Of a stretch of DNA of 64,000 nt, positions 4,238 through 12,161 are shown one piece after another. Each line of letters starts with the position of its first letter. Position 1 is the first letter of the stretch. The notes under the pieces were generated by a model, which searched no databases, was not told where the DNA came from, and saw nothing but the letters and a program-made list of their open reading frames with translations. Position numbers and translations under genes: made by a program. The stretch is taken from the NCBI RefSeq assembly GCF_003019035.1, contig NZ_CP027447.1; one strand, 5' to 3'. This stretch comes from Escherichia coli. Its GTDB lineage: Bacteria > Pseudomonadota > Gammaproteobacteria > Enterobacterales > Enterobacteriaceae.

Positions 4238-4549
4238 TTACTGTTGCAGTAGTTTCATCGCAAATTCAAGAACTGCCTGTCCGTTCATGGTGCCATAGTC
4301 TTTCATCTCGATAACAGCTACAGGCATTTTCCCCTGTGCAACAGCTTCAATCTCTGGTTTCTGAAAGCGAACTTGCGGGCCAAGTAAAACAACGTCAACT
4401 TCGTTATTTTTAATTTTCCCTTTAGCCTCTGCAATCGCCAATGCGGAAATATTAACTTCAAGTGAAATAGCGTTAGCATGATCAATCATACGTTTAACCA
4501 GCATACTGGTTGACATGCCCGCAGCGCAAACTAACAATATCTTTTTCAT
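4238..4549 (-). CDS. PTS lactose/cellobiose-family EIIB component
   Basis: 103 aa; MKKILLVCAAGMSTSMLV phospho-cysteine loop typical of ChbB-type IIB. Confidence 0.8.
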   Translation of the reverse strand: MKKILLVCAAGMSTSMLVKRMIDHANAISLEVNISALAIAEAKGKIKNNEVDVVLLGPQVRFQKPEIEAVAQGKMPVAVIEMKDYGTMNGQAVLEFAMKLLQQ

Positions 4550-4747
4550 ATTTTCCCTTACTGGTATATAACAGATTACATTGTGTAAATATCATATCCC
4601 GCAGTAGCTATACGTCCTGGTACATTGATCACAGTAATACAGCACTAAAGTTGTTCAACATCAGGGTGATAATTAAACGACTCGGCCATAGGATAAACCA
4701 ATCAGGACTCAACTCCTTGTTTTCAATGGCTCTTAAAAGGTGCAAAA

Positions 4748-6584: not shown

Positions 6585-7772
6585 ATGAACTTATCCCTAC
6601 GACGCTCTACCAGCGCCCTTCTTGCCTCGTCGTTGTTATTAACCATCGGACGCGGCGCTACGCTGCCGTTTATGACCATTTACTTGAGTCGCCAGTACAG
6701 CCTGAGTGTCGATCTAATCGGTTATGCGATGACAATTGCGCTCACTATTGGCGTCGTTTTTAGCCTCGGTTTTGGTATCCTGGCGGATAAGTTCGACAAG
6801 AAACGCTATATGTTACTGGCAATTACCGCCTTCGCTAGCGGTTTTATTGCCATTCCTTTAGTGAATAACGTGACGCTGGTGGTGCTCTTTTTTGCCCTTA
6901 TTAACTGCGCCTACTCCGTTTTTGCTACCGTGCTGAAAGCCTGGTTTGCCGACAATCTTTCCTCCACCAGCAAAACGAAAATCTTCTCAATCAACTACAC
7001 CATGCTCAACATTGGCTGGACCATCGGTCCGCCGCTCGGCACGCTGTTGGTGATGCAGAGCATCAATCTGCCCTTTTGGCTGGCAGCTATCTGTTCCGCG
7101 TTTCCCATGCTTTTCATTCAAATTTGGGTAAAGCGCAGCGAGAAAATCATCGCCACGGAAACAGGCAGTGCCTGGTCGCCGAAAGTTTTATTACAAGATA
7201 AAGCACTGTTGTGGTTTACCTGCTCTGGTTTTCTGGCTTCCTTTGTTAGCGGCGCATTTGCTTCATGCATTTCACAATATGTGATGGTGATTGCTGATGG
7301 GGATTTTGCCGAAAAGGTGGTCGCGGTTGTTCTTCCGGTGAATGCCGCCATGGTAGTTACGTTGCAATATTCCGTGGGCCGCCGCCTTAACCCGGCTAAC
7401 ATCCGCGCGCTGATGACAGCAGGCACCCTCTGTTTCGTCATCGGTCTGGTTGGTTTTATTTTTTCCGGCAACAGCCTGCTAATGTGGGGTATGTCAGCTG
7501 CGGTATTTACTGTCGGTGAAATCATTTATGCGCCGGGCGAGTATATGTTGATTGACCATATTGCGCCGCCAGGAATGAAAGCCAGCTATTTTTCCGCCCA
7601 GTCTTTAGGCTGGCTTGGTGCTGCGATTAACCCATTAGTGAGTGGCATAGTACTTACCAGTCTGCCGCCTTTCTCGCTGTTTATCATCTTAGCGTTGGTG
7701 ATCGTTGCTGCGTGGGTGCTGATGTTAAAAGGAATTCGTGCAAGACCGTGGGGGCAGCCCGCGCTTTGTTGA
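6585..7772 (+). CDS. ydeE: MFS transporter YdeE
   Basis: 395 aa, 12-TM MFS protein; sequence matches recalled E. coli YdeE. Confidence 0.9.
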   Translation: MNLSLRRSTSALLASSLLLTIGRGATLPFMTIYLSRQYSLSVDLIGYAMTIALTIGVVFSLGFGILADKFDKKRYMLLAITAFASGFIAIPLVNNVTLVVLFFALINCAYSVFATVLKAWFADNLSSTSKTKIFSINYTMLNIGWTIGPPLGTLLVMQSINLPFWLAAICSAFPMLFIQIWVKRSEKIIATETGSAWSPKVLLQDKALLWFTCSGFLASFVSGAFASCISQYVMVIADGDFAEKVVAVVLPVNAAMVVTLQYSVGRRLNPANIRALMTAGTLCFVIGLVGFIFSGNSLLMWGMSAAVFTVGEIIYAPGEYMLIDHIAPPGMKASYFSAQSLGWLGAAINPLVSGIVLTSLPPFSLFIILALVIVAAWVLMLKGIRARPWGQPALC

Positions 7773-7898
7773 TTTAAGTCGAACACAATAAAAATTTAAT
7801 TCAGCCTTCGTTTAGGTTACCTCTGCTAATATCTTTCTCATTGAGATGAAAATTAAGGTAAGCGAGGAAACACACCACACCATAAACGGAGGCAAATA

Positions 7899-7994
7899 AT
7901 GCTGGGTAATATGAATGTTTTTATGGCCGTACTGGGAATAATTTTATTTTCTGGGTTTCTGGCCGCGTATTTCAGCCACAAATGGGATGACTAA
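7899..7994 (+). CDS. mgtS: Small membrane protein MgtS (YneM), 31 aa
   Basis: Hand-translated ATG at 7899 after ggag SD: MLGNMNVFMAVLGIILFSGFLAAYFSHKWDD, stop TAA 7992-7994. Below the size cut-off of the ORF track. Confidence 0.75.
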   Translation: MLGNMNVFMAVLGIILFSGFLAAYFSHKWDD

Positions 7995-8024
7995 TGAACG
8001 GAGATAATCCCTCACCTAACCGGC

Positions 8025-8060
8025 CCCTTGTTACAGTTGTGTACAAGGGGCCTGATTTTT
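8025..8060 (+). terminator. Rho-independent terminator downstream of mgtS
   Basis: ccccttgt ... acaagggg stem followed by cctgattttt. Confidence 0.55.
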
Positions 8061-8065
8061 ATGAC

Positions 8066-8172
8066 GGCGAAAAAAAACCGCCAGTAAACCGGCGGTGAAT
8101 GCTTGCATGGATAGATTTGTGTTTTGCTTTTACGCTAACAGGCATTTTCCTGCACTGATAACGGATCGTTGA
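8066..8172 (-). ncRNA. mgrR: Candidate PhoP-regulated sRNA MgrR
   Basis: Minus-strand terminator hairpin ccgccggtttactggcgg plus a run of eight T (plus coords about 8066-8096) roughly 100 nt downstream of a PhoP-box-like direct repeat; location between mgtS and dgcZ agrees with where MgrR is reported. Ends are approximate. Confidence 0.5.
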
Positions 8173-9103: not shown

Positions 9104-9357
9104 TGCCACTCCTTTTTCACAGTTCCTTGTGCGCGCTATTCTAACGGGAGAAAAGCAAAATTACGTCAATATTTTCATAGAAATCCGAAGTTATGAGTCA
9201 TCTCTGAGATAACATTGTGATTTGAAACAAAATCAGCAGATAAAAAAGTGTTTAATTCTGTAAATTAACCCTGCATTATCGCAATTAAAAGGATGACAAA
9301 TAACATAACCCAATAACCTAATGGCCCCGTAGTTCAGGCCATCAGGCTAATTTATTT

Positions 9358-9750
9358 TTATTTCTGCAAATGAGTGACCCGAACGACGGCCGGAGCGCTT
9401 TTCTTATCCAGACTTCCGCTAATGTTGATCATCTGGTCCGGCTGAACTTCTCGTCCATCAAAGACTGCCGCAGGAATAACAACATTAATTTCACCGCTCT
9501 TATCGCGAAAAACGTAACGGTCTTCTCCTTTGTGAGAAATCAAATTACCGCGCAGTGAAACCGAAGCGCCATCATGCATGGTTTTTGCGAAATCAACGGT
9601 CATTTTTTTTGCATCATCGGTTCCGCGATAGCCATCTTCTATTGCATGAGGCGGCGGTGGCGCTGCATCCTGTTTTAATCCGCCCTGGTCATCTGCCAAC
9701 GCATAAGGCATGACAAGAAAACTTGCTAATACAATGGCCTGAAATTTCAT
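9358..9750 (-). CDS. ydeI: Periplasmic OB-fold stress protein YdeI (YgiW/BOF family)
   Basis: 130 aa with signal peptide [19 protein letters not shown]; matches recalled YdeI. Confidence 0.9.
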
Positions 9751-9980
9751 ACTGACTCCTTAATTGCGTTTGGTTTGACTTATAAAGTCTGGTTGCTATT
9801 TTTATAATTGCCAAATAAGAATACTGCCAATTGTTATAAGGCATTTAAAATCAGGCTACTAACTGTCAAATATTCAGAGAATTTAACTCACTAAGGTTAA
9901 GAAGAAGATTAAAGAGTCTTAAACATATTTCAGAACAATCAGATTTATAAATTTGAAAATTATTATAACGGAAGAGTATA

Positions 9981-10070
9981 CAAAAAAAGTAATTTTGCTG
10001 GCGACTGCGAAACGGCATTCGCATTAGCGGTGAAGTTTGCCCTCGCCCAACTGCTGCAATTACTGCTATA
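9981..10070 (+). pseudogene. Possible 3' remnant of ydeJ (CinA C-terminal-domain-like) left after deletion
   Basis: In-frame plus-strand tail ...GDCETAFALAVKFALAQLLQLLL-stop with no start or upstream body; in K-12, as I recall, ydeJ (172 aa) sits between ydeI and dcp, but only about 360 bp separate them here. Confidence 0.3.
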
Positions 10071-10115
10071 ACGAGGCTGGTCTGGCGATAAATCCAGGCC
10101 AGCCATTGGTGGTGT

Positions 10116-12161
10116 TTATACGTTCAAGCCACGATGTTGCAGCATCGGCATAATCTGAGGTGCCTTACCGCGCCATTGTCGATACAGGCGTTCCAGATCT
10201 TCGCTGTTACCTCTGGAAAGAATCGCCTCGCGAAAACGCAGCCCATTTTCACGCGTTAATCCGCCCTGCTCAACAAACCACTGATAACCATCATCGGCCA
10301 ACATTTGCGTCCACAGATAAGCGTAATAACCCGCGGCATATCCGCCACCAAAAATATGGGCGAAATAACTGCTGCGATAGCGTGGCGGTATAGCGGGAAG
10401 ATCCATATTTTCCGCCACCAGCGCCCGCAATTCGAAATCATCGACATCCTGCATTGCTTCGTTTTCTTCCAGGCAATGCCAGCGCATATCGAGAAGTGCG
10501 GCGCTAAGCAGTTCGCTCATCTCATACCCTTTATTGAACAGGCTGGCATTACGCATTTTCTGTTGCAGTTCGTCAGGCATCGCTGCCCCGCTCTGATAAT
10601 GCCGGGCGTAGCGAGCGAATACCTGCGGATGCGTTGCCCAGTGTTCGTTGATTTGCGACGGAAATTCGACAAAATCACGCGGCGTGTTGGTGCCGGAAAG
10701 CGTGGCATAACGCTGGCAGGCAAACAGGCCGTGCAGCGTATGACCAAATTCATGGAATAAGGTTATTACATCATCCCAGAGTAACAACGCAGGCTCCCCA
10801 GCAGCGGGTTTCTGATAATTGCAGACGTTATAAATTACCGGGTGCGTTTCATTCAGCGTTGATTGCTCAACAAAATTGCCCATCCATGCGCCGCCGCTTT
10901 TTGAATCACGGGCGAAGAAATCACCGTAAAATAACGCCAGCCCCACGCCATTATGATCAAAAATTTCCCACACCCGAACGTCAGGATGGTAGACAGGAAT
11001 ATCAAAACGTTCGACAAACTTAATACCGAAGAGCTGATTCGCGGTCCAGAATACACCTTCATTCAACACCGTGTTTAATTCAAAATATGGCTTGAGCTGC
11101 GACTCATCGAGATCGAATTTCTCACGTCTTACCTGCTCGGCATAAAATGCCCAGTCCCACGGCTGCGCGCTAAACCCGCCCTGCTGCTTATCGATAACCG
11201 CCTGTATGGAGGCTAATTCATCGCTTGCACGTTGACGCGCCGCTGGAACAATTTCCCGCATAAAGTTGAGTGCTGCTTCAGGTGTTTTTGCCATCTGATC
11301 GGCGATTTTCCATGCGGCATAATGAGGAAAACCAAGTAATGTTGCCTGTTGTGCACGGATCTCCACCAGACGTTGAATGATAGCGCGGGTATCATTGGCA
11401 TCATTTTTTTCCGCTCGCGTCCAGCCCGCAATAAACAGTTTTTCACGCGTCGCACGATCGCGCAGTTCAGCAAGCGCTGGTTGCTGGGTGGTATTCAGCA
11501 GCGGAATCAGCCATTTGTTATCCAGACCTTTCTCGCGAGCCGCCTCTGCCGCCAGCGCAATCTCTTGCTCACTCATTCCTGCCAGCTGCGCGATATCGTT
11601 CACAACCAGACCGCCGGATTTATTTGCTGCCAGTAACCGCTGGTTAAACTGGCTGGTCAGGGTCGCAGCTTCTGTATTCAGTACTTTTAATTTTGCTTTA
11701 TCAGCTTGCTTAAGTTTGGCTCCGGCAAGGACAAAACGTTGATGAATCACCTCCACCAGGCGGATGGATTCACTATCAAGCCCCAGGGATTCACGGCGCT
11801 GCCAGACAGCATCTACCCGCGCGAATAATTCCCCGTTCAGATAGATATCATTCGCAAGTTCCGCCAGTTCAGCGGAAAACTGTTCATCAAGACGCTGTAA
11901 TTCATCATTGGTATGCGCCGCAGTCATCGCAAAAAAGACGCTGGTAACGCGGGTAAGTAATTCTCCGCTTTGTTCCAGTGCCAGAATAGTATTGTTGAAA
12001 TCAGGCGTTTGCGGGTTAAGCGCGATGGCAGTAATTTCTGCCCGCTTTTGCAGCATTCCCTCATCGAATGCCGGGCGATAGTGATGATTGGCAATTTGAT
12101 CAAAATGGGGAGCCAGATACGGCAGTGTGCTTTGCACAAGGAAAGGATTCATTGTTGTCAT
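10116..12161 (-). CDS. dcp: Dipeptidyl carboxypeptidase II (M3 family zinc peptidase)
   Basis: ORF 10116..12227; from MTTMNPFLVQSTLPYLAPHF the protein matches recalled Dcp (681 aa); HEFGH zinc motif present. Confidence 0.9.
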   Translation of the reverse strand: MTTMNPFLVQSTLPYLAPHFDQIANHHYRPAFDEGMLQKRAEITAIALNPQTPDFNNTILALEQSGELLTRVTSVFFAMTAAHTNDELQRLDEQFSAELAELANDIYLNGELFARVDAVWQRRESLGLDSESIRLVEVIHQRFVLAGAKLKQADKAKLKVLNTEAATLTSQFNQRLLAANKSGGLVVNDIAQLAGMSEQEIALAAEAAREKGLDNKWLIPLLNTTQQPALAELRDRATREKLFIAGWTRAEKNDANDTRAIIQRLVEIRAQQATLLGFPHYAAWKIADQMAKTPEAALNFMREIVPAARQRASDELASIQAVIDKQQGGFSAQPWDWAFYAEQVRREKFDLDESQLKPYFELNTVLNEGVFWTANQLFGIKFVERFDIPVYHPDVRVWEIFDHNGVGLALFYGDFFARDSKSGGAWMGNFVEQSTLNETHPVIYNVCNYQKPAAGEPALLLWDDVITLFHEFGHTLHGLFACQRYATLSGTNTPRDFVEFPSQINEHWATHPQVFARYARHYQSGAAMPDELQQKMRNASLFNKGYEMSELLSAALLDMRWHCLEENEAMQDVDDFELRALVAENMDLPAIPPRYRSSYFAHIFGGGYAAGYYAYLWTQMLADDGYQWFVEQGGLTRENGLRFREAILSRGNSEDLERLYRQWRGKAPQIMPMLQHRGLNV

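Follow-up and report, generated by a model that had tools for sequence, protein, structure and literature searches.

The DNA analysed here, a 64,000-nucleotide stretch of Escherichia coli contig NZ_CP027447.1 (the window), almost certainly carries between ydeI and dcp a dead 80-nt stub of ydeJ that was left by a single ancient 475-bp deletion and is now carried by about a third of the E. coli genomes sequenced. A single deletion would have stripped this CinA/PncC-domain gene of its ribosome-binding region and start codon and of the first 146 of its 172 codons, and that event appears to predate the diversification of phylogroups D, F and B2 and of the O78:H4 lineage; in B2 a later, nested 506-bp deletion would then have removed most of ydeI and of the spacer. 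The stub would persist as neutral DNA beside a hairpin that probably ends dcp transcription, and the expected consequence is plain loss of YdeJ/RdsA, whose sole reported phenotype is a modest supercoiling effect in Salmonella. The feature itself is already known, in that RefSeq/PGAP marks the stub as an incomplete pseudogene (HHJ43_RS24375 in strain SCU-301), and it is a case of ordinary reductive evolution; that annotation comes without breakpoints, polarity or population context. The present analysis supplies all three, with the breakpoints at exact positions and with allele frequencies, and in addition the single origin and the nested B2 deletion.

Organization of the ydeI-dcp region

The gap between ydeI and dcp is 365 bp in the window (9751-10115), as against 837 bp in K-12 MG1655, where the spacer contains the 519-bp ydeJ gene (b1537, + strand). 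A sequence-only reading of this region had proposed that ydeJ is deleted except for a 3' remnant, that about 360 bp of AT-rich DNA remain, and that K-12 has a full ydeJ at this place. It had staked its case on a longer spacer in K-12 and on a tail resembling YdeJ, and both are found; GC content is 27% in the left 241 bp of the window spacer and 49% over the window as a whole. The features of the region are as follows.

6585-7772, + strand: ydeE, followed in gene order by mgtS and mgtT
between mgtS/mgtT and ydeI, - strand: dgcZ
9358-9750, - strand: ydeI, BOF/OB-fold periplasmic stress protein, intact, 130 aa (ORF; annotated in the identical strain SCU-301)
9446-9951: segment kept in the window and removed in B2 by the nested 506-bp deletion (alignment with FDAARGOS_1293; stub annotations)
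9751-9991: retained part of the ancestral divergent ydeI-ydeJ spacer, carrying the ydeI promoter region and candidate ydeJ promoters
9992-9993: deletion junction (pairwise alignments and junction string comparison)
9992-10071, + strand: ydeJ 3' remnant, 2 nt plus 25 codons (FAGDCETAFALAVKFALAQLLQLLL) plus TAA, without start codon or RBS (nucleotide homology; PGAP pseudogene)
10075-10104: hairpin with an 11-bp stem (GGCTGGTCTGG / CCAGGCCAGCC) between the convergent ydeJ and dcp stop codons
10116-12161, - strand: dcp, peptidyl-dipeptidase Dcp, intact, 681 aa (ORF and annotation)
beyond dcp, + strand: ydfG, then rspR/ydfH (+)

The two flanking genes are close to their K-12 counterparts (384 of 393 nt identical for ydeI, 97.7% nucleotide identity for dcp). 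The retained spacer, 9751-9991, aligns to positions 4499-4737 of the K-12 locus (L001) at about 90% identity, less than the 97.7% of the flanking genes. Over positions 9300-10300 the window matches the SCU-301 chromosome at 100% identity, with every other complete genome below 99%; we note that the ydeI-dcp region of the window is unusually divergent in this sense, other carriers of the same deletion being 97-98% identical.

The deletion and its junction

Pairwise alignment of the window with K-12 gives one clean gap of 475 columns. The missing 475 bp correspond to K-12 L001 4738-5212, that is, to the 36 bp before the ydeJ GTG start codon (4774) and the first 439 of its 519 nt, and with them the first 146 codons of the 172-codon gene are gone. 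The sequence-only reading had suggested alignment to K-12 ydeJ and its flanks as the way to map the deletion ends; that alignment places both, and reveals in addition the loss of sequence upstream of the start. At the joint in the window ACAAAAAAAGTAA is fused to TTTTGCTGG, between positions 9992 and 9993, with a microhomology of a single nucleotide, A9992, which could derive from either side. Both breakpoints were taken from pairwise alignments and direct string comparison, and not from a MAFFT multiple alignment of the whole spacer, which aligned the stub to the wrong side of the gap. No direct or inverted repeats or IS scars are present at the K-12 breakpoints (4738 and 5212), and neither filler nor a mobile-element scar was found at the junction. 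Because there is only this 1-nt microhomology and no repeat or mobile-element scar, the lack of homology points to illegitimate (non-homologous) end-joining or replication slippage as the putative joining mechanism, judged from extant sequences.

The ydeJ stub

The 80-nt stub is identical to the 3' end of K-12 ydeJ (L001 5213-5292) at 75 of 80 nucleotides and keeps the same frame and stop codon, and its peptide matches K-12 YdeJ residues 148-172 at 22 of 25 amino acids. It also occupies the place expected of ydeJ/rdsA, divergent from ydeI and convergent with dcp, and is thus the orthologous 3' end of b1537. The start codon, 146 codons and 36-bp leader that are present in K-12 are all absent from the window, so no protein can be made from its ydeJ; the window has no start codon, RBS or productive ORF for this gene. 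An intact functional homologue is present at the same locus in relatives and outgroups, as expected for a pseudogene of the deletion type. The in-frame tail of 30 codons reported by the sequence-only reading (ending in KKSNFAGDCETAFALAVKFALAQLLQLLL and a stop) was read exactly, but only its last 25 codons and the stop derive from ydeJ; the residues KKSN and those before them are former ydeI-ydeJ spacer, in a frame that is open back to a TAA at 9910-9912. There is no in-frame ATG, GTG or TTG between that TAA and the remnant, and the ORF list of the window has no ORF of at least 25 aa ending at 10071, which agrees with the earlier statement that a start and upstream body are missing.

K-12 YdeJ consists of a single CinA domain (PF02464 over residues 19-171 of 172), so the stub must be the tail of a CinA domain cut by the deletion. 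The suggested likeness to the C-terminus of CinA-domain proteins holds in this sense, by way of the full-length K-12 protein; the 25-aa stub itself gives no match in a Pfam search and does not contain the full-length CinA domain (about 155 profile positions) of a ydeJ/rdsA orthologue (NF002972; PF02464). Since the stub is too short for a Pfam match, the evidence for its identity is nucleotide homology and synteny, not domain recognition. It differs from K-12 at 6.2% of sites, compared with 2.3% for dcp and ydeI, a comparison that involves too few sites for statistics; three of the changes are non-synonymous and two synonymous, and further lineage-specific ones occur. PGAP describes HHJ43_RS24375 in SCU-301 as [quoted passage not shown] (equivalent to 9991-10071), and corresponding pseudogene entries exist in IAI39, SCU-313, APEC E14033 and the B2 strains Nissle 1917 and FDAARGOS_1293. 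The stub encodes nothing and is an ordinary pseudogene, which presumably persists as neutral DNA.

The retained spacer and the hairpin

The left 241 bp of the spacer still serve ydeI. Two promoter-like sites on the + strand, 9775-9802 and 9824-9851, correspond to sites in K-12 and are consensus matches only; the promoter scan gave three matches where 1.3 were expected, a weak signal. In K-12 the regulator RcdA binds the ydeI-ydeJ spacer (PMC3535384; the footprint is given there as "data not shown"), and the published RcdA box, TTGTnnACA, has no exact match in either the K-12 or the window spacer.

For the hairpin at 10075-10104 the folding energy is -23.3 kcal/mol when read from the + strand and -18.2 kcal/mol from the - strand, and K-12 has the same hairpin as a 10-nt perfect inverted repeat (I12). 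It has no T-run on either strand, was not called in the terminator scan, and thus lacks the combination of stem-loop and T-run of an intrinsic (Rho-independent) terminator. It is probably a shared transcription stop or RNA-stabilising element that ends or stabilises the dcp transcript, and this putative role may be why the deletions stop short of it.

It could be argued that the stub is not inert, and that transcription from the retained ydeJ promoter now runs across the remnant as far as the hairpin, yielding a short non-coding RNA or a micro-peptide. The candidate sigma-70 sites just described survive upstream of the junction, a strong hairpin lies 3' of the stub, and in Salmonella the ydeJ promoter is active and responds to supercoiling (PMC7387798). 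The weakness of those consensus matches speaks against such a product, as do the lack of any Rfam match (scan of 9300-10300, E<=1), the missing in-frame upstream start codon and the accumulation of lineage-specific changes in the stub, some of them non-synonymous. In addition, B2 strains have deleted all of the candidate promoters and still keep the stub and the hairpin, so that retention of these two is independent of any such transcript. We therefore consider an active stub very improbable and a functional role for it unlikely; neutral DNA remains the preferred reading.

Loss of ydeJ, not gain

The order ydeI (BOF, -), ydeJ (CinA, +), dcp (M3 peptidase, -), ydfG, GntR regulator is found in an E. 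fergusonii-type locus, in a divergent Escherichia lineage (87% protein identity) and in Salmonella enterica. Because these outgroups keep ydeI–ydeJ–dcp, the short form is a derived loss. They were found by protein search and contig look-ups, and the protein search also shows YdeJ orthologues to be widespread in Enterobacteriaceae. A contig scan with K-12 YdeJ was dominated by the generic CinA motif AESCTGG and had no Escherichia or Salmonella loci among the matches listed; the four useful Enterobacteriaceae loci among those matches provided the contexts in Enterobacter and Lelliottia, where ydeI adjoins a ydeJ homologue. Between K-12 and the 87%-identity Escherichia lineage the dN/dS of ydeJ is 0.09, a value that indicates purifying selection and hence a gene that is functional where it is kept. 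We note that an additional gene, for a 60-aa KGG-domain protein, separates ydeJ from dcp in Salmonella enterica (L093/L094 4631-4813), and that none is present there in Escherichia.

Frequency and the nested deletion in B2

Comparison across the species, also proposed by the sequence-only reading, shows the deletion to be inherited in about a third of 5426 complete E. coli genomes. The deleted 475-bp segment is present in 3618 of the 5426, the junction-bearing sequence is covered to at least 80% in 1790, the window-type contiguous allele occurs in 770, and the segment 9446-9951 is absent from 1055. In terms of alleles, about 67% have an intact ydeJ, about 14% are of the window type, about 19% carry a double deletion and less than 1% are of other types; these counts are BLAST coverage summaries from a clinically biased set of complete genomes and are approximate, uncertain by a few tens of genomes. 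IAI39, SMS-3-5 and CE10 carry the window allele. Among the strains examined, ydeJ is intact in those of phylogroups A, B1 and E, and deleted in those of D, F and B2.

The B2-type strains seen (FDAARGOS_1293, Nissle 1917 and ST131) have the same ydeJ junction and stub as the window and in addition the nested 506-bp deletion, which takes about 100 N-terminal ydeI codons and most of the spacer and leaves the last 29 ydeI codons and 40 bp of spacer. In these strains ydeI is therefore destroyed, whereas it is intact in the window, and stubs of both ydeI and ydeJ are annotated in FDAARGOS_1293 and Nissle 1917. By inspection of the alignment, the ends of the nested deletion share a 2-nt microhomology. 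This deletion sits on the first junction and so must have come later. About 19% of complete E. coli genomes are thus without both ydeI and ydeJ.

A single old event

The ydeJ junction is base-for-base identical in six strains: the window (F/ST967), IAI39, SCU-313 (D/ST69), APEC E14033 (O78:H4), Nissle 1917 and FDAARGOS_1293; IAI39 is generally placed in phylogroup F and Nissle 1917 in B2. The assignments of SCU-301 (phylogroup F, ST967) and SCU-313 (phylogroup D, ST69) are published (PMC11251922). On both sides of the junction its carriers have derived substitutions in common (GTAA, GCATTCGCA and AAG), none of which occurs in K-12, O157:H7 or the outgroup. The identical junction and shared substitutions in F, D, O78:H4 and B2 strains argue for a single old event. 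Among the six junction strains dcp divergence reaches 2.5%, no less than the divergence of any of them from K-12, and the deletion should therefore date from roughly the time of the deepest splits in the species. From the handful of typed strains and the local dcp/dgcZ distances we infer that it has been inherited vertically; recombination might also have spread it, especially into phylogroup D.

Three other accounts of the length difference have to be weighed against a single inherited deletion. The gap is not an assembly or sequencing artefact of one genome, a possibility that is ruled out by the same junction in about 1790 independently assembled complete genomes, IAI39, SMS-3-5, CE10 and Nissle 1917 among them. 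An ancestral short form, into which K-12-like strains would have received ydeJ through an insertion of 475 bp, has nothing in its favour beyond the bare difference in length. The breakpoint falls inside a domain whose C-terminus the stub continues in frame, a full ydeJ stands in the same place and orientation in three outgroup lineages, Salmonella among them, and the gene is under purifying selection (dN/dS 0.09, above). Outgroup synteny rules this candidate out, and we give it practically no weight. A deletion hotspot, at which the same-looking deletion arose independently several times across phylogroups, could draw on the nested B2 deletion at the same locus, on about 18 genomes that lack both the ydeJ body and the standard junction, and on partial or split matches in H24 (NZ_CP027459.1), H60 (NZ_CP091691.1) and H70 (NZ_CP074769.1). 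Against it stand the identity of the junction in F, D, O78:H4 and B2 strains, the shared derived substitutions that flank the junction, and a microhomology of just one nucleotide to guide recurrence; recurrent deletion is for these reasons very improbable, and a single deletion is the account we retain. In NZ_CP027459.1, NZ_CP091691.1 and NZ_CP074769.1 the matches are split or end within ydeJ or ydeI, and these genomes and the group of about 18 probably represent independent insertions or deletions.

What was lost

YdeJ belongs to the CinA/PncC fold family that it shares with PncC (YgaD), the active NMN deamidase. K-12 YdeJ matches TIGR00199, but scores 145.6 bits, below the PncC equivalog cut-off of 212 bits, and it has been described as a single-domain PncC paralogue without NMN-deamidase activity that has changes in its catalytic blocks, Y58F and N60D (PMC3855486). 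The Salmonella ydeJ orthologue has been renamed rdsA; its promoter responds inversely to negative supercoiling, supercoiling is higher in a mutant from which the gene is deleted, and the biochemical activity of RdsA is not established (PMC7387798). In the literature searched we found no phenotype for E. coli ydeJ. The NCBIfam equivalog NF002972, which K-12 YdeJ matches with 329 bits, names the protein "2-oxo-tetronate isomerase"; a published table assigns EC 5.3.1.35, for that activity, to b2739, an unrelated gene (PMC12506659), and our literature search found no paper linking YdeJ to it. The name attached to NF002972 may therefore be wrong, an error that would have been copied into thousands of records.

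YdeJ/RdsA and YdeI are evidently dispensable in large, successful E. coli lineages, which bears on any attempt to carry over to pathogenic E. coli the supercoiling phenotype of RdsA in Salmonella, or the regulation of ydeI and ydeJ in K-12, such as that by RcdA. A stronger proposal is that the stepwise erosion of the locus was not neutral, with ydeJ/rdsA lost in a D/F/G/B2 ancestor and ydeI then in B2; a weaker variant has the surviving supercoiling-sensitive promoter producing, in D/F strains, a novel short transcript of the stub. If true, the loss of RdsA, and later of the envelope-stress protein YdeI, could have shaped the physiology of lineages rich in extra-intestinal pathogens. We regard these readings as unlikely. 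As an old fixed gene loss the ydeJ deletion marks a deep split within E. coli, and the nested deletion is diagnostic for those B2 strains that were examined. Each of the two junctions could be used as a simple marker of lineage.

Two further polymorphisms lie nearby. A two-gene block with a rhodanese-like gene and the regulator gene ftrA is present between ydeE and mgtS in IAI39, O157:H7 and the divergent Escherichia lineage (L086 68-1532, L088 31-1492 and L091 282-1746; the equivalent site in the window is 7773-7898), and is missing from the window, K-12, SCU-313, APEC E14033 and the B2 strains. The block lies 2 kb away, and its presence or absence follows a distribution different from that of the ydeJ deletion. 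The mgtT gene is annotated as frameshifted in both B2 genomes examined (L003 1695-1800 and L087 2156-2261) and is intact in the window (equivalent 7994-8098) and in SCU-301.
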